From an uncultured Methanosarcinales archaeon (lineage in GTDB: Archaea > Nanobdellota > Nanobdellia > Woesearchaeales > GW2011-AR9), in contig CAZRZP010000001.1 in assembly GCA_964604645.1 (NCBI GenBank), positions 9,394-73,393 on the forward strand: DNA of 64,000 nt. The letters are read 5' to 3'. Below, one piece after another: positions 39,480 through 61,885 of this stretch (position 1 is its first letter; every line of letters starts with the position of its first letter). The notes under the pieces were generated by a model. It had not been told where the DNA came from and made no database searches. It saw only the letters and a list, made by a program, of their open reading frames with translations. Made by a program: the position numbers and the translations under genes.

Positions 39480-39647
39480 ATGGCAAATAAATATCTCAAA
39501 GTAAGATGTGCAAAGTGTAAAAACGAACAAATTATTTTTAGTAAAGTTAGCTCAAAAGTTGAATGCCTTGTTTGTAGCAAAGAAATGGCAACTCCAACTG
39601 GTGGCAAGTCTAAGATTTCCGCTCGTCTTTTGGAAATTCTCGAATAA
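39480..39647 (+). CDS. rps27e: 30S ribosomal protein S27e (55 aa, absent from the ORF track)
   Basis: Translation 'MANKYLKVRCAKCKNEQIIFSKVSSKVECLVCSKEMATPTGGKSKISARLLEILE' shows the C4 zinc finger and 'PTGGK' motif of S27e. It starts 2 nt after the rpl44e stop. Confidence 0.8.
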   Translation: MANKYLKVRCAKCKNEQIIFSKVSSKVECLVCSKEMATPTGGKSKISARLLEILE

Positions 39648-41532
39648 TTTTATATTTTTCAACTCCTTTATGGTAGAGTTGACAAGGTTCTGAACAGAAC
39701 CATAATTTTCCTTCTTCAATTCCTTCTCCAATCTCTTCTTTTTTACCACAATGTGGATCTTTTCTAGAACCGTAATTTTTCTTTACGGTTACCTCTTTTT
39801 TCCCACTTCTTATTTTTCTCTCTTTTCCTCTTCCTTTAATTATAAAAATAATTATTACAGTTGAAGCAATTACTGCCAACAATATCCAGATAATTATATT
39901 GTCTCCAACAACATCAGCTTTATCAAAAATTGCTTTTCCTGAAATTGCTCCTGATACTAGTTGCTCACAGCTTCTTTCTGTTTCTAATTCTCTTTCAATT
40001 TCACATTTATTCAACTCAACGCAGGTTCTTTTCTGAACACCACTTACGCAAGTTCTCGGGTACCATAGAGTACATTCCCAATCGGGCTGACATAAACAGA
40101 TTTGTGTATCTATATATTCAACAGCACTACAATCTAAACTTGTATTGATGCATGCCCTTTGCTGGTAACCATTTTCTCCACATTCTTCTGGGAACCAATC
40201 CACACAACTTGTCTTCTCTTGACAACCTCCTGTTTTCTTTACCGCAATAACAAAGAAACTAAATCCTTCGGAATAAGATTTGAAATAAGCAAAAGTTCCG
40301 TCTTCTCCAGTTTTTGTGGTGCCTAACTCTTCCCATTTATTGTTCTTAAAACGGTAAAGACTTACTGCTTCATGTTCAAATCCTTTATTGTTTAGCCAAG
40401 ATAATTCTACTCTAAAATCAAAATTTGAAGCTCTTGGAGATGTATCGTCAGACAGTTTCAGTTCATAATAATTAAGTACAATTGCTGGTGGAGAAATTGA
40501 AATCCCTAAAGGTTTTCGATCAAATTTTTTGATACTAAACACACTCTCAGCTGGCTTATCCATTAATGTTGTTACTGTAAAGATGTCTATGCCTTCTTCT
40601 TTTATGTTGATTTCATTTTCTCCTTGTTTAAAGATTGTTGATTGTTCGGATTGTGCTATTACTTTTTCAGGAACGATTAAAGAGGCCGCCGCTGTACCTG
40701 CAGCTGCAGCACCGCCGCCTCCACCGCCTCCGCCGCCACCACCACCAATGACGACGGTTGTAGTTGTATCTGGACACGTTCCACAATCAGCTGTACAGGA
40801 AGAACAACTTTCTCCAGCATTACAAGTTGCATCTCCACAAAAATTAGCTACTTCTGTGATGTTTAGGGTCACATTATTTGAATCTACAGTTAATGAAGAA
40901 TCGTTTGCTGTAAATATTGCCCAACTATTGCCAAAGAAATCTGTGTCTGGTTTGAATGAAACTTCATTTAATCCATTAATGGTTACATTAACATTATCTC
41001 CGAACCTAACTGTAAACTTAAGATAATCTCCTTCTGGATCAGAGAAATAATCATCCAAGTCAAGCCCGGTTAAGGTAACGTCTTCTTCCCAACTCTGGTT
41101 TGGAATTATTGTATCTAAAGTTGGGGCAGTATTGCTGAAGTTAATGAAGAATGAAGTTGATGCGTTCCTTGGACATCCTGACACGTTATCATGTACAGTT
41201 ACTTCAACACTTAAATTACCTGTCTGTGTGTGATTTGATGTGAAATTTATCACTCCATTGCTTGAATTTACATCCAAGAATGAATAATTGGCAAAATATT
41301 GAAGAGAATTATTATCTGAATCATTTCCTCTTGCTGTGAATGTTACAGTCGTATTTGCTCCAGCCACTTGATTGGTAATTGAATTGATTGTTGGAGGGGT
41401 ATTGATACATATATTGGATTCACCAGTTGATGTTGTATAACCTGTAATGTTAACCATAGCAAAAAAATTAACTATGTTTAATACAGTCAAAACTAATGCC
41501 AAAGCTATAACTATCCTCTTTTTCAAGTACAT
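39610..41532 (-). CDS. cell-surface protein: signal peptide, Ig-like 'PPTINSI' module, poly-Gly/Ala linker, Cys-rich domain, C-terminal TM plus short cytoplasmic tail
   Basis: N-terminal 'MYLKKRIVIALALVLTVLNIV'. 'NTPPTINSITNQ' is shared with the 44148 giant protein. 'GGGGGGGGGGGGAAAAGTAAA'. TM 'IIIWILLAVIASTVIIIFII'. Many N-x-S/T sequons. Confidence 0.5.
   Translation of the reverse strand: MYLKKRIVIALALVLTVLNIVNFFAMVNITGYTTSTGESNICINTPPTINSITNQVAGANTTVTFTARGNDSDNNSLQYFANYSFLDVNSSNGVINFTSNHTQTGNLSVEVTVHDNVSGCPRNASTSFFINFSNTAPTLDTIIPNQSWEEDVTLTGLDLDDYFSDPEGDYLKFTVRFGDNVNVTINGLNEVSFKPDTDFFGNSWAIFTANDSSLTVDSNNVTLNITEVANFCGDATCNAGESCSSCTADCGTCPDTTTTVVIGGGGGGGGGGGGAAAAGTAAASLIVPEKVIAQSEQSTIFKQGENEINIKEEGIDIFTVTTLMDKPAESVFSIKKFDRKPLGISISPPAIVLNYYELKLSDDTSPRASNFDFRVELSWLNNKGFEHEAVSLYRFKNNKWEELGTTKTGEDGTFAYFKSYSEGFSFFVIAVKKTGGCQEKTSCVDWFPEECGENGYQQRACINTSLDCSAVEYIDTQICLCQPDWECTLWYPRTCVSGVQKRTCVELNKCEIERELETERSCEQLVSGAISGKAIFDKADVVGDNIIIWILLAVIASTVIIIFIIKGRGKERKIRSGKKEVTVKKNYGSRKDPHCGKKEEIGEGIEEGKLWFCSEPCQLYHKGVEKYKIIREFPKDERKS
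40683..40750. repeat. GGN/GCN simple-sequence repeat encoding the poly-Gly/Ala linker
   Basis: 'gccgccgctgtacctgcagctgcagcaccgccgcctccaccgcctccgccgccaccaccacc' on the plus strand. Confidence 0.5.
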
Positions 41533-43677: not shown

Positions 43678-44151
43678 GTGTATTCAAAGCATAGAATAGA
43701 TCTAGTACAAGCAGTTTCCCAATTAGTAGGCTCTCTTTCTTTTGCTGAGAAGAGACACCTTTTTACTCAAATTTTATCAGAATCTAAACAAGTTGTTCCT
43801 CTAAGTATTTTTTCTGGTAAATTAGCAGGATTAGAAGCATTAGTTGTTTTCCTTAAAGATGAGCAAAAAAGATCAATTGCTGAAATTTCCAAATTGCTTG
43901 GCAGGAATAAGAGTACTTTATATTCAACCTATCATCAGGCAAAAAAGAAACTTATTGGAAAGCTGCCAAAACATGATTATACCATCTCTATTCCAATTGA
44001 CACTTTCTCTAATCGAAAATATTCAATTTTAGAATCATTGGTTGTTTTTCTGAAAGAACATTATCATCTTTCAATAAAAGAGATAGCAGAAAAAACTGGA
44101 AAGAAATACACTACAATTCATACGACATATTCAAGGTATAAAAAGAAATGA
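43678..44151 (+). CDS. small regulator with two tandem sigma-70 region-4/LuxR-like HTH units
   Basis: Repeat 1 is 'LEALVVFLKDEQKRSIAEISKLLGRNKSTLYSTYHQAKKKL'. Repeat 2 is 'LESLVVFLKEHYHLSIKEIAEKTGKKYTTIHTTYSRYKKK'. Its stop overlaps the ATG of the giant gene (ATGA). Confidence 0.5.
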   Translation: MYSKHRIDLVQAVSQLVGSLSFAEKRHLFTQILSESKQVVPLSIFSGKLAGLEALVVFLKDEQKRSIAEISKLLGRNKSTLYSTYHQAKKKLIGKLPKHDYTISIPIDTFSNRKYSILESLVVFLKEHYHLSIKEIAEKTGKKYTTIHTTYSRYKKK

Positions 44152-47100
44152 GCAAACAAAAAGTAAGTGAAAGTACAAAGAGAAAAAGAAGCGTTACTAG
44201 AAGAAAGACTTCAACAAATTGGACTTCAAGGAAGAAAGAAGTTGATAGTAGATTAAAGCTTCTAAGTAATCCAAAAGTTCCAACTTGTCCAACTGAGAAA
44301 TCTATAATCCCGCATGAAAAAATAAAGTCAGAGGGAAATATTTGGTTATTGTCTTCAATTGTAATAATTGTTATTCTTGCTGGTTTTACCTTTTTACTTT
44401 TTGATCCAAGTATTACTGGAGCTTTTAGCACTGCTGGTTTTGGGATTCTATTAACTGATGAAACAGATGATTTAGTTACTTTTTATGATGAGTTTTTAGA
44501 TGGTTTAACTAACAAAACAAGATGGTATAACTCAACTAGTTTAACATCAATGCATTTTATTGAAGATCAAATTATTATTAACACTTCATTAGCTAATAAC
44601 GCAGGAGATGGTTCCATAATAACTACTCAAAATTTGACAATGCATTCGTTTAATATCACTGCTAATGTTAGTTTACAAAATACTTCTTCCACTTTTAGTG
44701 TTGATTCATATACTCGTATCACAGTAGCCACATTTGACCAAATAACTCTTTTTCCAGAGACAACGTGTTCTTTGTTTTTAGAGGAGGCTTCCTCTGGAGC
44801 TTACGCATTATATTTTGGTAATTCAACTACTAGTAATCCTCCTCCTACAATTATTTCCAGTACATTAAGCGATTTTGGCAATAATCTTTCTGGTTTATTG
44901 AATATGGAATTTAAGAATGAAACTAACATGGTTAATTGTACTTTTACTGCTGGTGATAATTCAGTTACGATTGGAGGAGTAAGCAACGATCTTGGGCATG
45001 GTTATGGAGTTGGAATATTTGCAGAGTTAGGATTTCAAGGTGAAGGAGACCCTTCAGGAGATTTAAATGCAACTGTTTATGATTTTAATTATAGTTTAGC
45101 TCCTGCGGAAGTGGTTAATACTCCTCCTACAATCAATTCAATTATTTTAAACACTACTGATGTAAATTTAAATGATACTGAACAGAATGTAACTCTCTAT
45201 ATTGACGGGATTGATTCGGACGGAGATACTTTAAGAAATTTTACCACATGGATATTAAATAATTCTCCTTTAATGGAGTTTTATGTTCCATTTGAACCTT
45301 CAGGGGAATTAAATGCTACAGATTATGCTGATTTTGATAGTAATGGTTCTGCTGTCGGCGGAAGTCCATTTTGGAATTCAACCGGTGGTCATGACGGGGG
45401 CGGTGCTTGGCGATTTCCAGGAGGTTCAGATACAATTCTCCTTGCAGATGGAAATTTTCCTGACATCGGTGCAGGTAATTATACTTTGGATGTCTGGATT
45501 AGATTGAATACAACGGCAAATTATAAGACTATTTTTTCCCATAATAATTTTGATCCAGGTTTTTATGTTCATCAGGGATCCCTTATTGTCTACGATGGTG
45601 GAGATATAACTGGTGATACTGGTCTTGGTTTTACTGATGATTTGTGGCATCACGCAGCATTTGTCCGAAATTCGACAGGTACTAATGGTCTGAATTTTTA
45701 TCTTGATGGAGAGCCAGCTGGAGTTGCAACGCATTCAGCTTCTTTTCCTGCAATGACTGACTTGCGAGTTGGTTGGAGTTCAGCTGGTAATGAAAATTTT
45801 GATGGCCATATTGATGAACTAAAATGGTGGAATATACCCTTAACTTTGCAACAAATTCAAGCAATTTATCGTAATGGAACTAATATTATTGTTTCTTCAG
45901 AAACAACTGCTGGTCAGAACTGGACAGCTGATGTAACTCTTAACGATGGAACAGGGGATAGTGCAACAGCTAGAAGTAATCAATTGATAATTACTGACGG
46001 TGGTGGTGCTCCAGCCGGCAGTGGAACTCTCTCAATTAACAGAACTTTCCCTTACCTCAACTCAACCAGCCGAAAACAAAATGAAACGTTCAACATGACT
46101 TACAACCTTTCATGTGCTGATGATGATTGTTCAGATATTTCTGTTTCATTGGAATTCAACCCTCTAAATAATTCTAATTTTGAATATGGTATTAATGGTT
46201 GGGAAACTGGCGGAGACGGTGAATGGTTTGCTACTGAAACTTTCCCTCAAGACAGTGCAGCAAGTACACAGTCGGGAGCCATTTCAGATAATGAAATCAC
46301 TTGGATAAACCAAAGTGTTTATGTAAATCAAAGTGCTCAATTAGTATTCTATTGGAATGTAAGTTCAGAAAATACTTTTGATTACTTGTTATGGTGTCCT
46401 GACGCTCCAAGTTGTACAAGAACTGCTGGCTATGAATCTAGAATCTCTGGATCAACCGCAATGGCCAAAGTTACTTACGACCTAACTGCAGGAGCACATC
46501 AACTTATTTGGAAGTATGCTAAAGATTCTAGCAATCCGGTTGGAGCGGACGCAGGATGGGTTGATAACATCACTGTTTTTTCTAGAGTACCTAATGGTAC
46601 AAATGCATCACCTTTCAAAACTATGGTTACTAATATTCAGAATAAAACATATTCAAGTTGTTTAGGCTCTTTGTCTGTAGATGGTAGTTGTACTTTTGCT
46701 TTTATCATTAATTCTACTGGTCAAATAAATGAGTCACACGACTTACGTGTTTCAGTAACATCAAGTGATTCTGGTGTTGATGCTATTAATACAACTATTT
46801 TGAATGTTACAATTAACAATTCCGCTCCAGCATCTCCAGATACCACTCCACCTCTTCTTTATGTAGATTTTCCAGAGAATAATACTAAGTATGGTAGAGA
46901 ACGAGTTTGGTTAAATTTTACTGTGTCTGATGAAACTGAATTAGATCAATGTTGGTTCACTATTTTTAATGGTTCTAATTCCACCTTAGGTGGGTGCTCT
47001 AATATCTCATTTACACCAGGTAGAGGACCATTTAATTTAACAATTTACGCTAATGATAGTTCTAACAATCTTAATATTACTGGTCCTATTAATTTTAGCA

Positions 47101-50100
47101 TTAACTCTTTACCTTCAGTAAGTAATTTAGTTCTTAATACGACAGAAGTAACCACTAATGACACCAATCAAAATATAACCCCTTATTGGACAACAAGTGA
47201 TACTGACGGAACTGATACTGTACGTAACATTACTAACTGGTTATTGAATGGAACTTCAATTACTGTTCTTCATTTACCTTTTGAAGGAAATGTAAACTCA
47301 TCTACTTTAGCTGTAGACTATTCAGGATATGGTAATAATGGGTCTGTTCGTGGACCAGTTTACAACTCAACCGGATTCATCAATGCCACTCCAGGTTTTG
47401 GTTCTTTTGTTGCTACTGGTGCTTTAGAGTTTGATGGAATTGATGATTGGGTTAATGTATCTCATGATAATAGCCTTAGTGTTACAGATGAATTTACATT
47501 GATGATGTGGGTTAGAGATCCAGTAACAGGTTACGGTGCAACTAATTACACCACTCGCTGGGTTACCAGTCAATATAATTCAAGTGACTGTCCTTGGACT
47601 GTAACTACGGGTGCAGATGATGCTATGCGCACAGCTACTTTAGGTTTTGAATTTCCTTTCTTTGGTCAGAACATAAGTGGCTCAGCTACAGTTTATATGG
47701 ATACAAATGGTCGATTAAGTTTTGATGACTCTACCTCTGATTTCAATCCAACTACTGGAGAGATGGATGCGGAGAAGAATATTGCAGCAATCTGGCAAGA
47801 TTATGGTGGAGCTGCTCAAAACCATGAACATATTTGCACTAACCAGGGAGATGCTCCTGAAAAGTGGGCAGCTTTTCTATGGAACAGCACTTTTTATAAT
47901 AATGACGGAACCGTGGAAACCGAATTAGTTCTCTTTCAGAATGGCAGCATCTTATCTCGTTCTGGAACAATTGCTGCACACACTGACGATTGGATAAGGG
48001 GTTTAAGTAACGGATCTGATTATCATTATGAATTTAAAAGTGCAATTTTAGCTAATGAGTCTCAAAATGCATTTTTCTGGGATTTAATTTATCCTGTGGA
48101 AGTAGCAGCAGCAGATGAACCGTTACCGGAACGTTCATTAATCAACAAAAATTACAGCTATACTTTGCAAATGCGGAACATGACTGTATGGGGTTTCATA
48201 AATGGCAGTACATTAACAAATGTTTCAGTGGAAATTACTAAAAACTGGACGCATTTAGCCATGACTTTTAATTCAACCGATCTTACTCTTTTTAAAGATG
48301 GCAAATGGAATGATAGCATAAGTATAACTGCTAAAGTAAAACCTAATACTACTGATGTAGTTATCGGCGAATTAATTAATGGTTCGATTGGTGAAGTATT
48401 TATTTTCAATCGTAGTTTATCAGCACAACAGATAAATGCCTATTACAAAAACAAAACAATTATCCATTCAGAAGAAACTACAACTGGTCAGAACTGGACA
48501 GTTGATGTTACACCAAATGATGGTTATGAAGATGGAACCACTGTTAGATCGGATCAATTAATTACTTTAGGTGCTGCTGCCGCAGGAAATACTGTTCCAA
48601 CAATAGATTCGATTGGAATTAATTCAACCGATGTTCTTAGGAATGATACTTCTCAAAATGTTACTGCTAACGTAAGTTCAAGTGATGATGACGACGATGA
48701 TATAAAATTAGTTTACAACTGGCTTCATAATAATTCTCCTTACGCTGTTCTCAACATGCCTTTTGAAAGAGTTAACGGAACGTCAACAGATAATGGTTGG
48801 GATTATTCCGGTAATGCAAATAATGGTTCAGTAACTGGAGCTACTTGGAATTCTTCGGGTGGTTATGATGGTTCAGATAGTTATGTTTTTGATGGAATTA
48901 ATGACCGAATTGTAATTCCAGATAATGTAACCTTACGTCCAGGAACAACAGAATGGACGGTTGCTGCTTGGATTAAACCACCTAACTTGGATCAAAATGG
49001 TCCTTTCATTGCAAAAAGGTTGGCTAGCGGAACGTTTAACCAGATGCAACTTCTTGTTGGCACCATAGGTGGGGGTGGTTCTGTAACTGCGAGTAAAAGA
49101 GTATCTGTAATACTTAGAGAAGGAGCTTCAGGAAATTGGTGGTTTTATACTTCAAGTGATGTAGCAGATGGAGAGTGGCATCATGTTGCTTTTGTAAGAG
49201 AAACGGATGAAAGTGATAACGCTTTGTATATAGATGGTACTGCAGCTTCTTTAACTCAAGCAAAAAACGATGGAGGTACAATTCAAGATATTGACAACAC
49301 TCAACCATGGACAATTGGAAATGATAATGCTGCTGTCTATTACAACGGTTCAATTGATGAAATCTTGATATTTAATCGGTCTTTGTCGGCTCAACAAATA
49401 GCGGCAATTTATAGAAATGAAACTGACATCATTGTTTCACAAGAAACTACTCCTGGAGATAATTGGACTGTTGAAGTAACGCCTAATGATGGTACTGAAG
49501 ACGGTTCTTTCTCTAGATCAAATCAAATAATAATTAACAGACCTCCCACAATTGACACGATTGGTTTGAACTCTACAAATTTAGCAATTAATGGAACAGA
49601 TCAAAATCTTACTGTTAATGTTAGTTATACTGATATAGATGGGGACAAAGTTAAATTAATTTACAATTGGCTTGTCAATGGTTCTCCACAACACTTATTC
49701 AACATGCCATTTGAGAGAGTTAATAGTACTTTAACAAACAACGCTTATGATTATTCTACGTATGCTAATACTGGGACAGTTTCCGGTGCAATTTGGAACA
49801 GCAGCGGAGGTTTTGATGGCAATGGTTCCTATGATTTTGGAAAAGGTGGAGTTGCAATGGTGGATATCACCTTGGGAACTCACTTATATCTCAATAATAG
49901 TTATGATGAATTTACAACCATGGCCTGGGTCAAAACTGATGATAACTCAAAAACATATCAGTGGATTTTTACTCAGCATTCGGGGAATACATTTGGTGAA
50001 AAAAGAGTGGGTCATGGTTTGATGTTTTGGAATAACGATCTTCTTTTTGTAATCTCAAATGATACTGCTAATGTAAATAGTGATACAGCTAGAGTAAATA

Positions 50101-51203
50101 ATGTAATTACTGAAAATAACACTTGGTACCATGTGGCTGGTAGAGTAAACACAACTAATGTTTCAGTTTTCCTTAACGGTGAATTGCAGGCAGTTGTACC
50201 ACGAGCCAGAAGCCCACATAAATCTGGAGATTTAAATATTGGCGGAGGCGGGGTGGCTTCTTCTCAATTTAATGGATCTGTCGATGAAGTCTTACTTTTT
50301 AACAGAAGTCTTTCCCTAGAACAGATTCAGGCAATTTTCAAAAATCAATCCACTGTAATTGTCTCTCAAGAAACAAGAGCTCATGAAAACTGGACTGTTG
50401 AAGTAATTCCCAATGATCGAATAGCTGACGGAGAATCTGCAATCTCAAATCAATTAGTCATAATAAACAGCCCTCCGACAACTCCTCATCTTAACCTTAC
50501 TCCTGTTAATGGAACTTCTATTACCAACAGGACACCAACAATGAGCTGGTCAAATTCAACAGATGATGATGGAAACCAAATAACTTATCATATACAAATT
50601 GACGACAATTCAGCTTTTAATAACCCGGAGGTGAATGTTTCATCAATCTCAACTGATCCTGGAAAACCAAATGTAACTTATTACGTCGATACGGAATTAG
50701 ATGTTGATGTAGTCTATTATTGGAGAGTAAGGGCAGAAGACAATACTGAATTTGGGGAGTTTACCGGAGAAAATAATTTCACGGTTGATTCATTAATCTC
50801 ATTTTCCTTGCCAACCAGCACCATAGAATGGGGTTCTCAAGCTCCAAATCAGGAAATAACCACTGCTGACGGAACTCCAGCGCCAATGAGGGGAGAAAAT
50901 ACTGGAAACATCCTTTTGAACGTTTCAATAAACGCTACACAATTATTCAACGGGACTGCTCTAAATAATAGTGCATATCAATTCATGATTCGTGAAAATT
51001 TAACTAGTTCCTATAATTTAACTCTATCAGCTGGTAATTGGACGAATATGTCTAAAAGATTACACAGCGTCGTACATGTAGTTAGATTAAATTGGCAGAA
51101 TGTAAACGACGATTTCCTGTTCGACTTAAATTTAACCATTCCGTCAGATGAGAGGGCAGGAACAAAAACATCAATAATAGATTTTACGGTGGAACAAGGA
51201 TGA
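44148..51203 (+). CDS. giant (2351 aa) type-II-anchored surface glycoprotein with repeated Ig-like plus LamG_3 (concanavalin-A-like lectin) modules and a C-terminal FN3-like domain
   Basis: Basic cytoplasmic N-terminus, then a single TM 'LLSSIVIIVILAGFTFLLF'. At least four LamG_3 units, each with the lead-in 'L.MPFE...DYSG.GNNGSV.G' and the ending 'FNGSIDE(V/I)LIFNRSLS..QI.AIY+N.T'. Interspersed 'PPTI(N/D)SIG.NSTD' Ig-like segments. FN3-like 'TPTMSWSNSTDDDGNQITYHIQ...YYWRVRAEDN'. Very many N-x-S/T sequons. Confidence 0.75.
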   Translation: MSKQKVSESTKRKRSVTRRKTSTNWTSRKKEVDSRLKLLSNPKVPTCPTEKSIIPHEKIKSEGNIWLLSSIVIIVILAGFTFLLFDPSITGAFSTAGFGILLTDETDDLVTFYDEFLDGLTNKTRWYNSTSLTSMHFIEDQIIINTSLANNAGDGSIITTQNLTMHSFNITANVSLQNTSSTFSVDSYTRITVATFDQITLFPETTCSLFLEEASSGAYALYFGNSTTSNPPPTIISSTLSDFGNNLSGLLNMEFKNETNMVNCTFTAGDNSVTIGGVSNDLGHGYGVGIFAELGFQGEGDPSGDLNATVYDFNYSLAPAEVVNTPPTINSIILNTTDVNLNDTEQNVTLYIDGIDSDGDTLRNFTTWILNNSPLMEFYVPFEPSGELNATDYADFDSNGSAVGGSPFWNSTGGHDGGGAWRFPGGSDTILLADGNFPDIGAGNYTLDVWIRLNTTANYKTIFSHNNFDPGFYVHQGSLIVYDGGDITGDTGLGFTDDLWHHAAFVRNSTGTNGLNFYLDGEPAGVATHSASFPAMTDLRVGWSSAGNENFDGHIDELKWWNIPLTLQQIQAIYRNGTNIIVSSETTAGQNWTADVTLNDGTGDSATARSNQLIITDGGGAPAGSGTLSINRTFPYLNSTSRKQNETFNMTYNLSCADDDCSDISVSLEFNPLNNSNFEYGINGWETGGDGEWFATETFPQDSAASTQSGAISDNEITWINQSVYVNQSAQLVFYWNVSSENTFDYLLWCPDAPSCTRTAGYESRISGSTAMAKVTYDLTAGAHQLIWKYAKDSSNPVGADAGWVDNITVFSRVPNGTNASPFKTMVTNIQNKTYSSCLGSLSVDGSCTFAFIINSTGQINESHDLRVSVTSSDSGVDAINTTILNVTINNSAPASPDTTPPLLYVDFPENNTKYGRERVWLNFTVSDETELDQCWFTIFNGSNSTLGGCSNISFTPGRGPFNLTIYANDSSNNLNITGPINFSINSLPSVSNLVLNTTEVTTNDTNQNITPYWTTSDTDGTDTVRNITNWLLNGTSITVLHLPFEGNVNSSTLAVDYSGYGNNGSVRGPVYNSTGFINATPGFGSFVATGALEFDGIDDWVNVSHDNSLSVTDEFTLMMWVRDPVTGYGATNYTTRWVTSQYNSSDCPWTVTTGADDAMRTATLGFEFPFFGQNISGSATVYMDTNGRLSFDDSTSDFNPTTGEMDAEKNIAAIWQDYGGAAQNHEHICTNQGDAPEKWAAFLWNSTFYNNDGTVETELVLFQNGSILSRSGTIAAHTDDWIRGLSNGSDYHYEFKSAILANESQNAFFWDLIYPVEVAAADEPLPERSLINKNYSYTLQMRNMTVWGFINGSTLTNVSVEITKNWTHLAMTFNSTDLTLFKDGKWNDSISITAKVKPNTTDVVIGELINGSIGEVFIFNRSLSAQQINAYYKNKTIIHSEETTTGQNWTVDVTPNDGYEDGTTVRSDQLITLGAAAAGNTVPTIDSIGINSTDVLRNDTSQNVTANVSSSDDDDDDIKLVYNWLHNNSPYAVLNMPFERVNGTSTDNGWDYSGNANNGSVTGATWNSSGGYDGSDSYVFDGINDRIVIPDNVTLRPGTTEWTVAAWIKPPNLDQNGPFIAKRLASGTFNQMQLLVGTIGGGGSVTASKRVSVILREGASGNWWFYTSSDVADGEWHHVAFVRETDESDNALYIDGTAASLTQAKNDGGTIQDIDNTQPWTIGNDNAAVYYNGSIDEILIFNRSLSAQQIAAIYRNETDIIVSQETTPGDNWTVEVTPNDGTEDGSFSRSNQIIINRPPTIDTIGLNSTNLAINGTDQNLTVNVSYTDIDGDKVKLIYNWLVNGSPQHLFNMPFERVNSTLTNNAYDYSTYANTGTVSGAIWNSSGGFDGNGSYDFGKGGVAMVDITLGTHLYLNNSYDEFTTMAWVKTDDNSKTYQWIFTQHSGNTFGEKRVGHGLMFWNNDLLFVISNDTANVNSDTARVNNVITENNTWYHVAGRVNTTNVSVFLNGELQAVVPRARSPHKSGDLNIGGGGVASSQFNGSVDEVLLFNRSLSLEQIQAIFKNQSTVIVSQETRAHENWTVEVIPNDRIADGESAISNQLVIINSPPTTPHLNLTPVNGTSITNRTPTMSWSNSTDDDGNQITYHIQIDDNSAFNNPEVNVSSISTDPGKPNVTYYVDTELDVDVVYYWRVRAEDNTEFGEFTGENNFTVDSLISFSLPTSTIEWGSQAPNQEITTADGTPAPMRGENTGNILLNVSINATQLFNGTALNNSAYQFMIRENLTSSYNLTLSAGNWTNMSKRLHSVVHVVRLNWQNVNDDFLFDLNLTIPSDERAGTKTSIIDFTVEQG

Positions 51204-52414
51204 AACGAAAAATAATATTTATTTGTATTTTATTAATACTAATAAGTTCAGTTTACGCAACTGGAATTAGGCCTGCTAAAACTGAATTAGCGTTTGATGA
51301 AACTAAATATATAAACAAAACAATTTGGGCTATTAATAATGACTATAATGGTTTGGATCTGAGTATATCTGTACAAGGAGAAATTGCTGAATATGTAAAC
51401 CTACATACTACCAAGCTTACAATCCGTGATGATGAAGATGCTAAACCAATTAACTTTGAAATTAGTTTACCTCCTTCCATACCGCCTGGGATTTCAACTG
51501 CTTATATTGTTGTTGAAGAAAAATCAATTCATGGTGAAGGGAGTAGCGTGTCAAGTAGAATTTTATTGAAACATAAAATTATTGTTGAAGGCCCTTATCC
51601 TGAGAAATATGTGAAAGCGAAAGTTAATTTTCGGGATACTGGAGATACTATTATGTTTGTGTCTGAAGTTGAGAATTTCGGAACTAAAGATTTGGAGAAC
51701 GTTTACACCAACTTTTATGTAAACGATAAATTATCAAAACAACAGAAACCTTCAACTGAAGGTACATCATTGAAAACTAATGAAAATAAACTTTTAACTA
51801 CTTCCCTTCCCAAGACTTTATTTGATTTGGGTGAATATGAAGTTTCTGCAGTAACTCATTTTGATGGCCAGCAAGTTGAATTACTTAAGAAATTAAGAGT
51901 TGGAAAACCAGATGTTGACGTAACATATTTTGACAAATACTTTCAAGCTTATGAGTTAAACCGGTATGCTATGGATCTATTAAATAAATGGAATCGGGAA
52001 ATAAAAAATGTGTTTGTTGATGTTGAAGTTCAAAAAGACGAGAAAAAAGTTGATTCATTCCGAACTAAATCTGTTGATCTTCCAGCTGAAGTGTTAAAGA
52101 GGATTGAAGATTATTTAGATGGCAGAGAAAAATCTCCTGGAGTTTATACATTCAAATTAATTGTAAACTTTTGGAACGATATTAGGATGGAACAGAAAGA
52201 ATTCTTATTTGATTCTGAATTTCTTGAACCGGGCATTGAACTTCCAGAAAGAAACGCCCTTTCTGGAGCAGCTACACAAACAGAATTAAATGGAACATCA
52301 TTTTCATGGCTTCCATGGATAATCATTACTCTTTTATTACTTTTAATTACTTCGTATGTTGTCTACAGGTACATTAATCGAGAAGAATATGAAAGAGGGG
52401 GCGACGTTTTTTAA
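51200..52414 (+). CDS. secreted beta-rich protein with signal peptide and C-terminal TM anchor (paralog of 54673-55809)
   Basis: 'MKRKIIFICILLILISSVYA' signal. C-terminal 'WLPWIIITLLLLLITSYVVYRY' plus a short tail. ATGA overlap with the giant gene stop. Confidence 0.5.
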   Translation: MKRKIIFICILLILISSVYATGIRPAKTELAFDETKYINKTIWAINNDYNGLDLSISVQGEIAEYVNLHTTKLTIRDDEDAKPINFEISLPPSIPPGISTAYIVVEEKSIHGEGSSVSSRILLKHKIIVEGPYPEKYVKAKVNFRDTGDTIMFVSEVENFGTKDLENVYTNFYVNDKLSKQQKPSTEGTSLKTNENKLLTTSLPKTLFDLGEYEVSAVTHFDGQQVELLKKLRVGKPDVDVTYFDKYFQAYELNRYAMDLLNKWNREIKNVFVDVEVQKDEKKVDSFRTKSVDLPAEVLKRIEDYLDGREKSPGVYTFKLIVNFWNDIRMEQKEFLFDSEFLEPGIELPERNALSGAATQTELNGTSFSWLPWIIITLLLLLITSYVVYRYINREEYERGGDVF

Positions 52415-52481
52415 GGTTTGTTACTTTGCAGTTAACACGAGCTTTTATAAACTTTTTTCAATCTTTTAATTGGGATAGACA

Positions 52482-52763
52482 GTGGCAAGGAAAAAGAAGG
52501 TGAAGAAAGTGGTTTCCGTTGTGGATAAGAGTTCTAACACTGTTGTTGCCGTCTTATTAATTTTGGTTATTTTAGCTAGTTTAGTTAGCCTGTTATTAAT
52601 TCCACAAGCTGCAAATAGTGCTACTCCAAAAAAAGTAAACGATATCTCAACTAGTAAGGGTGAAGTTAGTATTGAAATTCTAAGTCCCGGTCAAAATCCA
52701 ACAGGGGATTTTCCTTCATCAACAGGTGAAGTTTCAATTCAAATAAATAAAAAGGGCGAGTAA
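52482..52763 (+). CDS. small N-terminally anchored or pilin-like protein
   Basis: 'KKKVKKVVSVVDKSSNTVVAVLLILVILASLVSLLL'. It shares the 'S-N-x-(I/V)-V-x-x-L-L-(I/V)-(V/L)' N-terminal motif with the next two genes. Confidence 0.35.
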   Translation: MARKKKVKKVVSVVDKSSNTVVAVLLILVILASLVSLLLIPQAANSATPKKVNDISTSKGEVSIEILSPGQNPTGDFPSSTGEVSIQINKKGE

Positions 52764-52765
52764 AT

Positions 52766-53644
52766 ATGGCAGACGTTTCCAATAATATTGTTGTTGGGCT
52801 ACTTGTTGTGGCTCTTGTTTTAACTATCACTAGTACTGTAGTTAGCTTACAGAAATTAAGTGTACTTGAAGGTAGTTTTAGTCTTCTCACTGGTGCTGCA
52901 ACTACTACTGCTTCAGGAGATTCTAATATAACAATTACTTCGGTAACTTCTATTAAAAATCATAATGCCTCTTTAGGTTTCGGTTCTGGTAATATCAATG
53001 CTACTTGTGATTATTGTCAAATAATTATGGAAGGGTCGGTAATTGATGCATTTTCAAATGGTACGAATGTTGCTAAAATGAATACCCAAGCCAATATTAA
53101 CTGTTGCGTTGGTTTTACAATACCAGGAAACGGATTTATTATAGAAAATATTGGTAACACTAACCTTTCTGTTGGATATACTTGTTCCGAATTGGATGGG
53201 GAGACTAACGCCGCTGGGAATTGCACTTTTAATCATTTTATCGGTGGAACAATTCCAAGTAGCCAAGGGGGTATAAGCTTTAGAATTGAAGCTGAAAGTG
53301 ATAGCTCATTATCTGCTGATGTTGGTACTGATAGTGCAACTGATACAGAATCTTCTTGTGCTGGTGGAGGGAATTATCCTGGCGTTGAAATGTGGAATGC
53401 CACTAATGATAGTGCTTATGGCAATGTTCCTTCAGCCGCAGCTTTTGAAGGTCTTGGAGGAACTGTATTTCACCCTCTTCAACTTTATCATTGGATATGT
53501 GGTAACGCAACGCAGTATCCTTTAGACTCTGGCGCAGATCGTGATGCTGGAGTTATGACTTTTAACGTTACTATTCCGTCTAGTGCCCCATCTGGCCTAG
53601 GTATCAGAGCATTTTTATTAAATTTTAATGGAACTTCTAGTTAA
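52766..53644 (+). CDS. secreted or anchored Cys-containing glycoprotein, tandem paralog A
   Basis: About 60% identity to 53764-54639. N-terminal 'SNNIVVGLLVVALVLTITSTVVSLQKLS'. Conserved C-terminus 'PSSAPSGLGIRAFLLNFNGTSS'. Many sequons. Confidence 0.5.
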   Translation: MADVSNNIVVGLLVVALVLTITSTVVSLQKLSVLEGSFSLLTGAATTTASGDSNITITSVTSIKNHNASLGFGSGNINATCDYCQIIMEGSVIDAFSNGTNVAKMNTQANINCCVGFTIPGNGFIIENIGNTNLSVGYTCSELDGETNAAGNCTFNHFIGGTIPSSQGGISFRIEAESDSSLSADVGTDSATDTESSCAGGGNYPGVEMWNATNDSAYGNVPSAAAFEGLGGTVFHPLQLYHWICGNATQYPLDSGADRDAGVMTFNVTIPSSAPSGLGIRAFLLNFNGTSS

Positions 53645-53763
53645 TTATTATTATTATTCCACTTTTTCTTTTGTTCATATCTTGTCGCTACTCTCAAGTT
53701 TAGATGAACATTTATATTCTCTATCTCTCTTATTACAACAAATACTACTGATTTAAATCAAAT

Positions 53764-54639
53764 ATGGCGGAGTTTTCAAATAATATCATTGTGGGATTGC
53801 TAGTGGTGGCTCTTGTTTTAACGGTTACCAGTACAGTCGTGAGTTTACAGAAATTGAGTATACTTGAGGGGGGGTTTGAATCTCTAACTTCTGCTGCAAC
53901 CACAACTGCAAGTGGAGATTCAAATATTACTATTAATTCAGTTACCTCTATAAAGAACCATAATTCATCTTTAGGGTTCGGATCCGGTAATGTTAACGCA
54001 ACATGTGATTTCTGCCAATTAACAATGAATGCTACTACAATTGATGGGTTTTCAAATGGTACAACTGTCGCAAGATCTACAACAATAGACGATAGTCTTT
54101 GTTGTGCTGGTTTTACATCTATAGGTTATGGCTTTGTTATTGAAAACATTGGGAATACTAATTTATCGGTTGGTTATACTTGTTCCGAGTTGGATGGCGA
54201 GACTAACGCTGCAGGTAACTGTACTTATGCTCATTTTATTGGAGGTACTATACCAGCAGGCCATGGAGGTATAGGGATTAGAGTAGATGGCGAATTTAAC
54301 CTTGGTGCAGATATAGGTACTGACTCTGCACTTGATACTGTTGAATCTTGTGCTGGTGGAAGTACTAGTTATGTTGGTGTAACTGGTTGGAATATAACTA
54401 ATGCTAGCGCTTACGGAAGTGCTCCAGCAGGAGCCCAGTTTGAAGGTTTAGGAGAAGGCTTATATGCTCAGCTTGGTCTTTACCATTGGTTGTGTGGTAA
54501 TGTAACACATTTTCCTTTAGACTCAGCTGGTGATAGAGACGCTGGGATAGTAAGGTTAAATGTTACAATTCCAAGTAGTGCCCCATCTGGTCTAGGTATT
54601 CGGGCATTTCTATTAAATTTTAACGGAACTTCATCGTAA
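53764..54639 (+). CDS. secreted or anchored Cys-containing glycoprotein, tandem paralog B
   Basis: Paralog of 52766-53644 with the same termini and Cys spacing ('NATCDFCQL', 'LCCAGFT', 'YTCSELDGETNAAGNCT'). Confidence 0.5.
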   Translation: MAEFSNNIIVGLLVVALVLTVTSTVVSLQKLSILEGGFESLTSAATTTASGDSNITINSVTSIKNHNSSLGFGSGNVNATCDFCQLTMNATTIDGFSNGTTVARSTTIDDSLCCAGFTSIGYGFVIENIGNTNLSVGYTCSELDGETNAAGNCTYAHFIGGTIPAGHGGIGIRVDGEFNLGADIGTDSALDTVESCAGGSTSYVGVTGWNITNASAYGSAPAGAQFEGLGEGLYAQLGLYHWLCGNVTHFPLDSAGDRDAGIVRLNVTIPSSAPSGLGIRAFLLNFNGTSS

Positions 54640-54672
54640 GGTTTATATTGTTCTTTTTTTTCCTTATTTTTA

Positions 54673-55809
54673 ATGAAACGGGTTATTTTTGTTGTTGTAC
54701 TGTTCTTACTAAGCTTCCAAGTTTTTTCAATAGGCTTGGCAACTTCTAAAATAGAAATTCTTAATTACGTTCCTGGAACTTCTCAAACAATGGGTTTTCA
54801 AGTGATGGGAACAAGCTCTGATGTTGATATTCAAGTGTCTCAAGGCCCTCTTAATAATGTTGAAGTGACTGAATTAAATGAACAAAATAAATTTCATGTA
54901 ACTTTCAATTTTGATGAAACTTTTATTGAACCTGGCGATTACATCCTCGCAGTTACTGTTAAAGAGAAACCAAATCTTCTTTCTGGTGGAGGAATGAAAG
55001 CCCTTACCTCAGTTTCAAAGAGAATTAAGATGCGAGTACATAGTTATGAAAAAGATGTACAGATTAGTTTATCAACCCCTAAAATAAACAAAGGTTTTCC
55101 TTTACCGGCTACTTTAAACGTGCAAAGTGTAGGTTATCCAGATATCGATTCTGTTGGGGGAACTATTTCTATTTTTGACAAAGAGGGAAATCTATTGGAA
55201 TCAATCACCACTGAAAAGAAGCCTTTGCCTAGCTTATCTAGTGTTTCTTTTTCCCACACATTTCAAACTCAAAACCTTCAAAAGGGCACATACTTTGCAA
55301 CTGCTGAAGTAACATATGATGGGAAAAAAGAAAATACAACCTCAAATTTCTTAATTGGAGATTTAGATCTTTCGTTAGTTAAATATTCAAACAAACTAAA
55401 TAGAGGTTATAATAATTTTAATGCTACTGTGGAAAACAATTGGGGTAATCCTGTTGGAAATATTTATGCTAAATTATTTTTTAGTGAAAAAGAGGTGCTA
55501 CATACACCCACAATATCTCTTCCAGCCTGGGAGCAGGGAATTCTAAGAGGAATAATCAATATTGATTTAGAACCTGGGAAACACTCAGCAATTTTACGTC
55601 TTTTCTTTGAAGGTAATCAAAAAGATGAGAATATTACTCTTGAAATATTGGAACAAACTGCCACGCAGGTATCTTTGCCAAAACTAAACAAACCAAGCAC
55701 TTTATATTTTCCTTACCTTGCGGTTTTAGGTGCGATAGTTATGATATTAATTCTTTTTTTTATTTGGAAGGGAGGAATGTTTAACAATGATAACAAAAAG
55801 GAAATTTAA
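54673..55809 (+). CDS. secreted beta-rich protein with signal peptide and C-terminal TM anchor (paralog of 51200-52414)
   Basis: 'MKRVIFVVVLFLLSFQVFS' signal. C-terminal 'LYFPYLAVLGAIVMILILFFIWKGG'. Shared 'Y..A.VT.DG' motif. Confidence 0.5.
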   Translation: MKRVIFVVVLFLLSFQVFSIGLATSKIEILNYVPGTSQTMGFQVMGTSSDVDIQVSQGPLNNVEVTELNEQNKFHVTFNFDETFIEPGDYILAVTVKEKPNLLSGGGMKALTSVSKRIKMRVHSYEKDVQISLSTPKINKGFPLPATLNVQSVGYPDIDSVGGTISIFDKEGNLLESITTEKKPLPSLSSVSFSHTFQTQNLQKGTYFATAEVTYDGKKENTTSNFLIGDLDLSLVKYSNKLNRGYNNFNATVENNWGNPVGNIYAKLFFSEKEVLHTPTISLPAWEQGILRGIINIDLEPGKHSAILRLFFEGNQKDENITLEILEQTATQVSLPKLNKPSTLYFPYLAVLGAIVMILILFFIWKGGMFNNDNKKEI

Positions 55810-56227
55810 TTCAAGTAATTATCTACTCTATGGGCTTATTCTGGTAATCCTACTAACTTCGGCTGTAACTTATCTAAATTGGCCTGAATGCACTTCAATT
55901 CAGGAGATGAGTACAATGGTCAAAGTTAAAGAAGCTGTTAATGGAAACGCTTGGATTGGTTTGACTGGGGATACAGATAAACTTGATTTTGGTGGGGTTT
56001 CACCTGGTTCAATATCTTCTCGTAAAATAAAAATAAAGAGAATTGTTGATGCTGACGTCTCTGTTTCTTATACTAATGAGATTGGCAAGTGGATGAGCGT
56101 CAAACCTAGCCCTATGTTTTCGATTAAGTCTGGTGAGGAAAAAGAAATTACTGTGGAGATTAATGTTCCTCAAGAAGTTCAAAACGGAAAGTATGAAGGT
56201 ACAGTAAAGTTTTGCTTTAAAGAATAG
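55787..56227 (+). CDS. N-terminally anchored small protein, last gene of the surface-module operon
   Basis: TM 'LLYGLILVILLTSAVTYL' followed by a beta-rich domain. Overlaps the previous gene by 23 nt. Confidence 0.4.
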   Translation: MITKRKFNSSNYLLYGLILVILLTSAVTYLNWPECTSIQEMSTMVKVKEAVNGNAWIGLTGDTDKLDFGGVSPGSISSRKIKIKRIVDADVSVSYTNEIGKWMSVKPSPMFSIKSGEEKEITVEINVPQEVQNGKYEGTVKFCFKE

Positions 56228-56326
56228 TTTTATAATTTGGTGTGAACTTTTTTTCATCTCAGCTTATTCTTTTAATCTTATTTTATACCAAACCTTTTTA
56301 AAAAATCAAGTAATTTTATGCTTAAA

Positions 56327-60073: not shown

Positions 60074-61885
60074 TTAAAAACAGAACTCTTTTACTTTATT
60101 TGCAGTTAAAGTAAATCCACCTAACTTTTTGTTAACTCCCTCATTCGGATGCGTAATTATTTTACTTGTTTCTCCTACACCAATCGTAATGATTTCCCTT
60201 TCAACAACTTTATTACCAACTGATGCAACAACATCTTTTTTACATACCCCTTTACTTTCAGCACATATACAACTTACTCCGTAAGTCGTTTTACACTCTG
60301 CACAATCTGCATCACTTTTACATGCCAAATCAACTTCTTGATCACAAGAAATTGCCGTGCCTAAACTATCATAGCAAAATACATCTGTCTTAATAATTTC
60401 AATTGGTATCTTTACTGAGTCTCCTTGGCAGAAATTAGGTAGTGGTCGAACCGTCCATCTTAAAGCTCCTGCAGCCGCATAACTGCCTTCTTTTCCATGA
60501 AGAAGGTAAGTTTCTCCGTCACTTGTAACAATTTCAATATTATTAATATTACAACTCTTTGATTGACAAGTTTTCTGTGTGTAAAGATCTTTCTCATCAT
60601 ATGCTTGACATTTACCATTGACACAGAACTGACCAATAGTACATTCCTGATGGTCAGAACAGCTTTCTTTGCTCACATCAACTCTTTCAGCATCGTATGC
60701 TTCTTCGACATCACATTTTGTATTATTATTTTCATCTAAACAACAACCTCCTTCCGTTACAATGTGAGGTGGAGTACATTCAAATGGTGCATCATTTGCG
60801 AAACTGTCTTGAATATGAATAGCTTTTCCAGCAGTTTGGGAAAGGAAGAAGAAACCAAGTATAACTAAACCAAGCGTCAATCCTCCAATAACCACCATTC
60901 TTTTTTTATCGCCATGTAATGGAATATTTCCAGTTGGTTCAGGCTCAGAACTTACAGACCTACTTGCGGATCTTTTTGGAGCTGTTTTTTGTGAAGTTGT
61001 TGAAGTACTTGCTTGAGCTCCTTTATATGAATGATAATTTCTTTGAACAGTTGCATGATATGCTCGATTTATATCATCTGCATTCCAGCCAGCTTTCATT
61101 AAATTTTCTTTAATGTGGAAAAAGTTTTTTCCTTGCTTAATATGTTTGGTAATATAATCCATTACTGGGTGATTGGAAGAACTTACGTTCTGACTTCTTC
61201 CCATTGAACTTCTTCTTACTTGTTGATTATTATTACTATAAGTATTATTTTTTGTTTTATTTTTTTTCATATACCAAATTCCACCAATTAATCCTGCAAT
61301 TATTAGTATCCCTATAATCCAAAAACCTGAGCCACCTTCTTTAAATTCATTAATTTGCTGCTGCAAGGCTGAAACATTTGTTCTAGTTTCTTTGATATCT
61401 TCCTGGATTGCTGCTAGCCCTGTTGAAACTGAAGAAATCTGTTTACCAAGTGAATCTTCAGTTTGTCCTTGCTTTTGAACTAATTGTCGCAAATTATCGT
61501 TAATACTTTGAATTTGTTTTTGCAAATCTGTGTTAGCTGTGCTATCAACTGCAACCTTTTGTTCTAAGATAGCTAATTTTGCTTCTACATTAGAGACTTT
61601 TGAATTAAGTACAACATCTGTATCTTTGGAGGGCGTTGTTTGAGAATTTCCGGTTGTTGAAGTATTAGTTTTGTTTGTTTTTTGATCTCCAGCAACGGCT
61701 GTTTTCATCATACAAGTTTTTGTAAACCCGCTGCAATAACAACTTTGTTTAGCTGGACATGCTTTTACACAATCAGCTGTTTGAACACATTTTATTCCTA
61801 GATTCTTGTCAGCTAATGCAGAAAAAGAAAGTATTGCAACTATAAATAACACCAAGACTACCGCTATCTTCACTTTTTTCATCAA
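60074..61885 (-). CDS. two-TM membrane protein with N- and C-terminal extracellular Cys-rich domains, a coiled-coil stalk and a Ser/Asn-rich cytoplasmic loop
   Basis: Signal 'MMKKVKIAVVLVLFIVAILSFSALA'. 'CVQTADCVKACPAKQSCYCSG'. Heptad-rich 'LEQKVAVDSTANTDLQKQIQSINDNLRQLVQKQ'. TMs 'FWIIGILIIAGLIGGIWY' and 'MVVIGGLTLGLVILGFFFL'. About 30 Cys in the C-terminal domain. Confidence 0.45.
   Translation of the reverse strand: MMKKVKIAVVLVLFIVAILSFSALADKNLGIKCVQTADCVKACPAKQSCYCSGFTKTCMMKTAVAGDQKTNKTNTSTTGNSQTTPSKDTDVVLNSKVSNVEAKLAILEQKVAVDSTANTDLQKQIQSINDNLRQLVQKQGQTEDSLGKQISSVSTGLAAIQEDIKETRTNVSALQQQINEFKEGGSGFWIIGILIIAGLIGGIWYMKKNKTKNNTYSNNNQQVRRSSMGRSQNVSSSNHPVMDYITKHIKQGKNFFHIKENLMKAGWNADDINRAYHATVQRNYHSYKGAQASTSTTSQKTAPKRSASRSVSSEPEPTGNIPLHGDKKRMVVIGGLTLGLVILGFFFLSQTAGKAIHIQDSFANDAPFECTPPHIVTEGGCCLDENNNTKCDVEEAYDAERVDVSKESCSDHQECTIGQFCVNGKCQAYDEKDLYTQKTCQSKSCNINNIEIVTSDGETYLLHGKEGSYAAAGALRWTVRPLPNFCQGDSVKIPIEIIKTDVFCYDSLGTAISCDQEVDLACKSDADCAECKTTYGVSCICAESKGVCKKDVVASVGNKVVEREIITIGVGETSKIITHPNEGVNKKLGGFTLTANKVKEFCF

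Follow-up and report, generated by a model that had tools for sequence, protein, structure and literature searches.

We analysed a 64,000-nt stretch of DNA (contig CAZRZP010000001.1; hereafter the window) in which eight co-directional genes, all on the plus strand and either overlapping or separated by tiny spacers, occupy positions 43678-56227, with rpS15 next. The window is archaeal, carrying genes for the exosome, proteasome, SBDS, eIF2-alpha, Nop10, and L44e/S27e at a G+C content of 33%, and is identical to the 248-kb metagenomic contig JGI 3300007504 Ga0104999_1000012. The ENA, JGI, and Logan assemblies matched it at 100% identity, and one short contig differed at 4 of 2457 nt. In order, the cluster encodes a helix-turn-helix (HTH) protein, a giant surface protein (Giant), and the smaller proteins A, x, B, B', A', and y. 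A sequence-only reading of this DNA had placed the genes correctly in coordinates and order, and had seen in them two interleaved paralog pairs, one membrane-anchored (A and A') and one secreted (B and B'). With moderate confidence, we interpret the products as a membrane-anchored surface adhesin complex, WxL/WxLIP- or chaperone-pilin-like in operation, at the core of a conserved Woesearchaeal cluster.

The gene cluster and its two protein lineages

The first gene (43678..44151) encodes a protein of 157 amino acids (aa) with two sigma-70 region-4-like HTH repeats, recognised through sub-threshold sigma70_r4 matches (NCBIfam/Pfam), which is probably the cluster's own regulator. Its stop codon overlaps the start of Giant (44148..51203; 2351 aa), a protein with a cytoplasmic N-terminus, a single transmembrane (TM) helix (aa 63-85), an ITGA motif (aa 89-92), and four LamG/concanavalin-like domains (Pfam Laminin_G_3, E=6.8e-67, four stretches). 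The stop of Giant is in turn overlapped by the start of A (51200..52414; 404 aa). The second member of the anchored pair, A' (54673..55809; 378 aa), has the same architecture as A, with a Sec-type signal peptide and a C-terminal TM helix followed by a short charged tail. This architecture had been recognised from the sequence and stood up to analysis, while the core motif Y..A.VT.DG assigned to the pair proved only approximate (YEVSAVTHFDG in A and YFATAEVTYDG in A', which align with each other). Toward the C-terminus, A reads LSGAAT, then the TM helix, then YRYINREEYERGG, and A' ends after its TM helix with WKGGMFNNDNKKEI.

The two proteins are 23% identical across 310 aa (BLASTP E=7e-8), and their family profiles can be aligned along the whole length, signal peptide and C-terminal TM helix included (hhalign 99.7%, E=2e-26), confirming A' as an ancient paralog of A whose similarity reaches far past the signal peptides. 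The AlphaFold model of A contains three beta-sandwich domains, corresponding to residues 22-131 (PapD/ASH-like), 138-234 (CARDB/WxLIP_HBD-like), and 239-342, all of them immunoglobulin (Ig)-like, followed by an LSGAA motif, the TM helix (aa 365-389), and the charged tail. In the fold comparison, whose figures are listed without unit and run from the highest rank downward, A was most similar to the Enterococcus faecium WxL-interacting protein (9i1y; 13.7), followed by FimC (11.7), CfaA (11.6), CsuC (11.0), YadV (11.0), SafB (11.0), PapD (10.3), CupB2 (10.2), EcpB (10.1), and FaeE (9.4). The chaperone-like character proposed for the pair thus holds for A as a fold similarity to pilus chaperones.

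The third Ig-like protein, y (55787..56227; 146 aa), consists of an N-terminal TM helix and one Ig-like domain with two invariant Cys, and its profile matches domain 1 of A (hhalign 95.9%, E=5.7e-9). Sub-threshold Pfam matches accompanied all three families: CARDB was found in 37 of 39 A members and WxLIP_HBD in 7 of the 39 as well as in 3 of 15 A' members (best E=3.1e-5 for A and 9.2e-6 for A'; the A' of the window scored 19.9 bits against a cut-off of 28.9). In addition, A' matched Wzt_C, and y matched ASH, Cep192, and PG_0320-like models, with WxLIP_PGBD appearing in y alone (E=0.015). The CARDB, WxLIP_HBD, and ASH matches agree with the fold similarity. Family profiles of A and B searched against PDB sequences reached, at best, E=0.039 (2qsv, PG_0320) and E=0.32.

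The sequence-only reading had also likened the anchored pair to sortase substrates, and this suggestion was not borne out. Neither PGF-CTERM (TIGR04126) nor any other sorting signal was matched in A or A' by NCBIfam at E<=1, LPXTG was absent from both proteins, and Gram_pos_anchor occurred in 1 of 15 A' homologs (E=0.081). With no sorting-domain match and no archaeosortase or sortase among the conserved neighbours of the cluster, described below, we rejected both the PGF-CTERM/archaeosortase and the LPXTG/sortase substrate readings.

The secreted pair belongs to a different lineage. B (52766..53644; 292 aa) comprises an N-terminal TM helix, an LTGA motif (aa 41-44), a beta-sandwich domain rich in Cys and in N-x-S/T sequons, and a conserved C-terminal strand; in its model, a long N-terminal helix is predicted at aa 2-41, followed by the beta domain. 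Foldseek gave no significant match between the B model and the PDB, and an exhaustive search with the B-family profile retrieved 690 cluster representatives at E<=1e-3. Giant resembles this family in its final ~170 residues (~aa 2181-2351; 50688..51200): family profiles align with hhalign 90% and E=1.7e-6 over 169 columns, with the significance lying mainly in the last ~37 columns (E=3.5e-6). Reciprocal weak cross-matches of hidden Markov models (HMMs) connect the B family with the Giant C-terminus, co-linear motifs (NxT[IV].S, EN.GN, and D.N.T.P.D...F) can be followed by eye, and both B and Giant terminate no more than 5 residues past the last conserved strand. Natural fusions of LamG and B domains also exist, with protein P0132 carrying LamG and a C-terminal B domain and P0197 carrying a B domain into which LamG is inserted. 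When the B profile was compared by hhalign with a single sequence, either the C-terminus of Giant or y, nothing informative emerged; these comparisons required family profiles compiled from the retrieved loci.

Between A and B lies x (52482..52763; 93 aa), which has a basic leader, an SN-T motif, a TM helix, and two short amphipathic strands (GEVSIEILSPG and GEVSIQINK) with no globular domain. Its family comprises 18-21 members of one design, in which one or two strands of the form G-E-V-x-I-x-I-x-P-P follow a linker. Against the N-terminal 60 residues of B, the x profile gave E=5.4e-6 (hhalign), compared with 5.6e-4 against y and 0.015 against the Giant N-terminus as controls. When the leader and TM helix were removed, the strand part no longer matched the N-terminal strand of B (E=0.48), leaving the by-eye likeness of these strands unsupported. 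The relation between x and B therefore rests on the SN.T motif and the TM anchor. Judged from these profile comparisons, the cluster appears to be built from two protein lineages, a B domain (B, B', and the Giant C-terminus) and an Ig-like scaffold (A, A', and y), with x sharing just the N-terminal anchor of B.

Divergence of the tandem B copies

B and its tandem paralog B' (53764..54639; 291 aa) are 72% identical at the aa level over their full length (BLASTP E=4e-142) and 70% identical at the nt level, which establishes the paralogy claimed for them. Eight Cys occupy equivalent positions in the two proteins, and sequons number 11 and 12. Identity reaches 87-93% at both termini and in a core at residues 121-160, and falls to 50-57% in windows 81-130 and 151-260; the expected pattern of conserved Cys spacing and conserved termini around a divergent interior is thus present, as two divergent stretches separated by a conserved core. 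The pair had been described as secreted glycoproteins; both are sequon-rich, but secretion is not established for B, which bears an N-terminal TM helix that may or may not be cleaved.

The divergent interior had been taken as a sign of diversifying selection, and our estimates did not support this. Nei-Gojobori counting gave dN=0.22 and dS=1.25 nonsynonymous and synonymous substitutions per site, hence a ratio (omega) of 0.175. Omega peaked in the divergent stretches (~81-130 and 151-260) at 0.59 and 0.69 and never exceeded 1, the highest 30-codon window standing at 0.69, although a pairwise test is weak at such divergence. Positions at which B and B' differ tend to be variable in the family at large (mean conservation 0.54 vs 0.69; Mann-Whitney p=1.6e-5), pointing to relaxed loops, and residues 198-253, within the second divergent stretch, are low-confidence loops in the B model. 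Synonymous sites were saturated throughout, including the termini, where the proportion of synonymous differences (pS) was 0.57-0.70 and omega 0.03-0.11. Because the synonymous sites are saturated there too, the termini are kept by purifying selection and not by recent gene conversion, which we ruled out as the reason for their conservation given this terminal pS, a third-position identity of ~50%, and a longest identical run of 17 nt. Collectively, the data fit a tandem duplication that is old and lineage-specific and whose copies have evolved under purifying selection, with relaxation in their surface loops.

Two further observations concern B-type genes elsewhere. In one locus of a Woesearchaeota genome (L013:2547-4130), two tandem B copies are each frameshifted at one shared position, after GAFC and before GFYLENTGN, yielding two overlapping open reading frames (ORFs); pseudogenization, an error of assembly, or programmed frameshifting could account for them. 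A solo B-type gene (L001:10001-10870, protein P0003), 55% identical to B, adjoins an M50 peptidase gene on another contig that shares samples with the window (3300007504 and SRR9166051) and has a similar G+C content (32.8% vs 33.5%), and it is possibly a third B paralog of the same genome.

Distribution and layout of the cluster

Homologs of B (29, from a k-mer search) and of A (66) were all Woesearchaeota/Nanoarchaeota proteins without assigned names. For synteny, we combined the contexts of three B homologs with those from 46 GTDB species genomes that the A profile had identified, classified the ORFs with our own HMMs, and obtained 50 non-redundant loci, mostly from GTDB Woesearchaeota/Nanoarchaeota genomes. 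The orthologs of A' were taken from the syntenic loci, the k-mer homolog search for A' having given 2 proteins. Giant lies directly upstream of A in 43 of 51 cases, often with a 4-nt overlap, and a B gene stands immediately 5' of 14 of the 15 A' genes. In three loci (L018, L023, and L041) the seeming absence of Giant reflects masked runs of N, and these are not counter-examples. An HTH gene was recognisable 5' of Giant in 14 loci. The commonest full layout was Giant-A-x-B-A'-y with a single B; the number of B copies ranged from one to three, extra copies being variously placed (window, L006, L014, L037, L042, and L050). The x-B-A'-y block was divergently oriented in L006 and L049, moved in L042, and reordered in L009. 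From gene order, the ancestral layout consists of two modules, [HTH-Giant-A] and [x-B(1-3 copies)-A'-y].

These distributions revise the proposal that local duplication produced an A-x-B-B'-A' arrangement. The step from one B to B and B' is upheld, but the same does not apply to A and A', which are old, functionally separate families, because one is tied to Giant and the other to B.

The layout also bears on the possibility that there is no specific assembly at all, and that the cluster merely co-expresses membrane Ig proteins and glycoproteins of the envelope or S-layer type, B and B' forming a redundant coat. The separability of the modules in the genome, the generic nature of Ig-like folds, and the lack of a Pfam family, enzyme, or motor component in the cluster would all be compatible with such a coat. 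The strict coupling of Giant to A and of B to A', with overlapping stop and start codons, argues against it, as do the B-like C-terminal domain of Giant and the reuse of both lineages in truncated form (x and y), which makes sense only if the proteins interact. We therefore regard a coat of unassembled proteins as unlikely and continue to favour an adhesin complex.

Several neighbouring genes recur without being assigned to the cluster. Among the families shared by many loci are the housekeeping neighbours dnaK, grpE, dnaJ, ArsR-type HTH, and HD; the dnaK-grpE-dnaJ operon, the ArsR-type HTH gene, and the HD-domain gene are syntenic with Giant-A in ~19 loci (L025:3434-5332, L027:6715-7302, L012:1970-3091, and others), which is probably neighbourhood conservation only. 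Proteins of ~494 aa with an ASH/PapD-like Ig domain (Cep192_D3 and HYDIN-like matches) were present in 21 loci, including L014:16586-18067 on the minus strand, often on the opposite strand just past y; the window has none. Conserved neighbours of the 50 loci included no archaeosortase. An Exosortase_EpsH (archaeosortase-like) gene occurs three genes past the second B copy in L006 (14432-15370), in this locus only, and is hence not a conserved partner. Approximately 20 of the cluster-bearing genome records (L015, L016, L019, L023, and others) are titled "uncultured Methanosarcinales archaeon", which looks like a submitter label at odds with the gene content.

Within the window, TATA-like boxes were seen by eye ahead of x (TTTATAAA; 52406-52481) and ahead of B' (TTTATATT; 53645-53763), and oligo-T runs downstream of A, B, and y (52406-52481, 53645-53763, and 56228-56270). 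They hint at internal promoters and terminators, with x-B and B'-A'-y transcribed separately. Outside the cluster, a 603-aa Cys-rich protein (60074-61885, minus strand) has a signal-like segment at its N-terminus, internal TM segments, and a stretch resembling a coiled coil; it has no Pfam match on record and may be another surface protein. Two more ORFs lack a Pfam family in the precomputed annotation (2959-6666, plus strand, 1235 aa; 39610-41532, minus strand, 640 aa).

Proposed assembly and attachment, and comparison with known systems

Sequons and short motifs indicate how the two lineages could be arranged at the cell surface. Giant carries 5.5 sequons per 100 aa (129 sites), B 3.8, and B' 4.1, compared with 0.5 in A, 0.8 in A', 0.7 in y, and 0 in x, a split that would fit exposed glycoproteins on the one hand and membrane-proximal partners on the other. 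A motif of the form [LI][TS]GA[AV] is common to B, the Giants, and A proteins, well above a background of 0.79 per 1000 aa. In B it lies 10-20 residues past the N-terminal TM helix, with T42 and A44 invariant (window 52886-52897); in the Giants it lies 3-40 residues past the TM helix in 14 of 21 proteins by regular expression and in most others by eye (window 44334-44426); and in 15 of 44 A proteins it lies ~10 residues ahead of the C-terminal TM helix (window 52259-52273). The residues T-G-A conform to the -3/-1 rule of signal peptidase I, and the motif may represent a processing or docking site.

A second motif, (D/E)(I/V/F)SN(K/R)(T/A), directly precedes the TM helix in the x and B families at the boundary between cytoplasm and membrane (x, 52524-52535; B, 52772-52792), the N-terminal consensus of the B family being M..(I/V)SN(K/R)T followed by hydrophobic residues. 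This raises the question of whether B and x are type IV pilin-like, cut as class III signals at SN(K/R)T and assembled by a type IV pilus machine encoded elsewhere. The conserved motif at the junction of leader and TM helix in both families, the long basic leader of x, and the long N-terminal helix of B ahead of its beta domain are features that a pilin would share. However, the motif is unlike class III signal peptide rules: the [KR][GA] site is missing, and Thr or Ala follows Lys/Arg in place of Gly/Ala ahead of the cut. No ATPase (PilB/FlaI), platform protein (PilC/FlaJ), prepilin peptidase, or sortase was found in the 64-kb window or among the conserved neighbours of the 50 loci. No pilin or archaellin family of Pfam or NCBIfam was matched, and in B the helix and the beta domain are set apart by a linker and a conserved TGA motif. 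On these grounds we rejected the archaeal type IV pilin reading, which we consider highly improbable.

In the adhesin complex that we favour, A and A', tethered to the cytoplasmic membrane and facing outward, would act as chaperone or docking proteins and would bind B-type domains through a beta-sheet edge or strand complementation, with A serving Giant and A' serving B. B would form a stalk, sheath, or array that mounts the Giant adhesin on the cell, probably for attachment to a host or surface. Several considerations weigh against this model. The homology between Giant and B rests mostly on ~40 C-terminal residues; about half of the loci lack x-B-A'-y downstream of A in the DNA fetched (up to 10 kb), showing that the modules are separable; the WxLIP, CARDB, and ASH Pfam matches all fall below gathering cut-offs; and physical contacts between the proteins are inferred. 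Furthermore, archaea lack peptidoglycan, and the anchoring logic of WxL proteins is therefore not literally transferable.

A more specific version of the model, which we put forward tentatively and consider rather unlikely, is an usher-less, chaperone-assisted fibre or complex of Woesearchaeota and probably of other DPANN archaea, in which A and A' would assemble B, a new family of glycoprotein subunits, by strand complementation and would mount Giant via its B-like C-terminus, with x as a strand-only anchor. The favoured model can also be sharpened into a true donor-strand fibre, an archaeal pilus without usher, which is plausible but to which we attach a similarly low likelihood. After TGA cleavage, the new N-terminal strand of B (G-E/D-x-N-I-T-I) would insert into the next B; Giant would act as the tip adhesin, its B-like domain accepting the strand; x would be a TM-anchored terminator or anchor; and A and A' would be tethered PapD-like chaperones. 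The agreement of T-G-A with the signal peptidase rule, the resemblance of A to pilus chaperones, the ending of B and Giant so close to the last conserved strand, and the construction of x, which lacks a globular domain and bears just one or two amphipathic strands with Pro-Pro at the end, are all in keeping with such a fibre. The candidate strand region (B aa 42-60) is of low confidence in the monomer model, like the N-terminal donor strand in the AlphaFold2 model of the TLP-1 homologue, and archaeal precedents exist in the bundling pili (ABP), threads, and cannulae (PMC9245690, PMC12518558). Conversely, the strand of x failed to match that of B once the TM helix was removed, and the TGA motif lies ~15 residues past the TM helix, an unusually long distance for a signal peptidase I site. 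The donor-strand fibres known from archaea are reported to be chaperone-independent, and no filament is on record for these organisms.

Of the systems available for comparison with the proposed adhesin complex, the WxL clusters of Firmicutes come closest in functional logic. Alongside a small WxL protein they encode a large one, in which binding domains at the N-terminus are combined with a WxL domain at the C-terminus, and also a WxLIP, built of a signal peptide, a pair of Ig domains, and a TM helix; WxLIP is predicted to donate a strand to WxL (PMC10599100). The window cluster shares with this WxL/WxLIP (Csc) system (PF06030 DUF916 and PF11797 DUF3324; PMC10599100) the logic of small and large clients combined with a signal-peptide/Ig/TM partner, and A and A' are organised correspondingly, with Ig-like domains in tandem between a signal peptide and a C-terminal TM helix, A being similar in fold as well. 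However, neither protein reaches the gathering score of PF06030 or PF11797, and A has three Ig domains instead of two. The WxL Pfam domain was not matched in B, B', or Giant at E<=1, B-domain clients standing in its place; B and Giant carry N-terminal TM helices; and the archaeal cluster, from organisms without peptidoglycan, has x and y in addition to a pair of specialised partner paralogs.

PapD-like chaperones bind pilins by strand complementation, and chaperone-usher pili (PapD/FimC-type, with FimH or CfaE as tip adhesin) offer a likeness to Giant in their tip adhesins, which combine a lectin with a pilin domain. In contrast to these pili, the window cluster comes without an outer membrane or usher; A and A' each have three domains and a membrane anchor and lack the PapD-type signature (PapD_N/PapD_C matches, a soluble two-domain form, and an usher); and donor-strand exchange is only proposed. 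Archaeal type IV pilins and archaellins share with B an N-terminal hydrophobic helix and a glycosylated beta domain, but B lacks the class III motif for cleavage, and its surroundings encode neither an assembly ATPase nor a platform or peptidase. Fibres that employ donor strands include TasA/TapA, the AbpA/AbpB bundling pili (PMC9245690), Sulfolobus threads and Pyrodictium cannulae (PMC12518558), and the TLP-1 pond fibrils (PMC11494351). Taken as a whole, the likeness to known systems is one of functional analogy with fold-level kinship for A, and not of membership in the WxLIP, PapD, PGF-CTERM, LPXTG, or type IV pilin families.

Literature searches of limited coverage found no published description of this cluster, which is apparently an undescribed, conserved surface-adhesin cluster of DPANN archaea. 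To our knowledge, the attachment of DPANN archaea to hosts and surfaces is largely unknown, and almost no Woesearchaeota have been cultured. The cluster is conserved in dozens of species-level genomes and unites a giant lectin-like protein with five or six small partners drawn from only two lineages, and its analysis defines at least two protein families without a Pfam model. It also offers hypotheses as to which protein docks on which, where processing could occur, and which component may form the stalk. If a chaperone-assisted fibre were true, it would be the first archaeal counterpart of chaperone-dependent pilus or WxL assembly and a candidate for the organelle by which DPANN episymbionts attach to their hosts. 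The cluster would also extend to archaea the logic of an Ig-like membrane partner plus a strand-accepting client known from Gram-positive WxL clusters and chaperone-usher pili.

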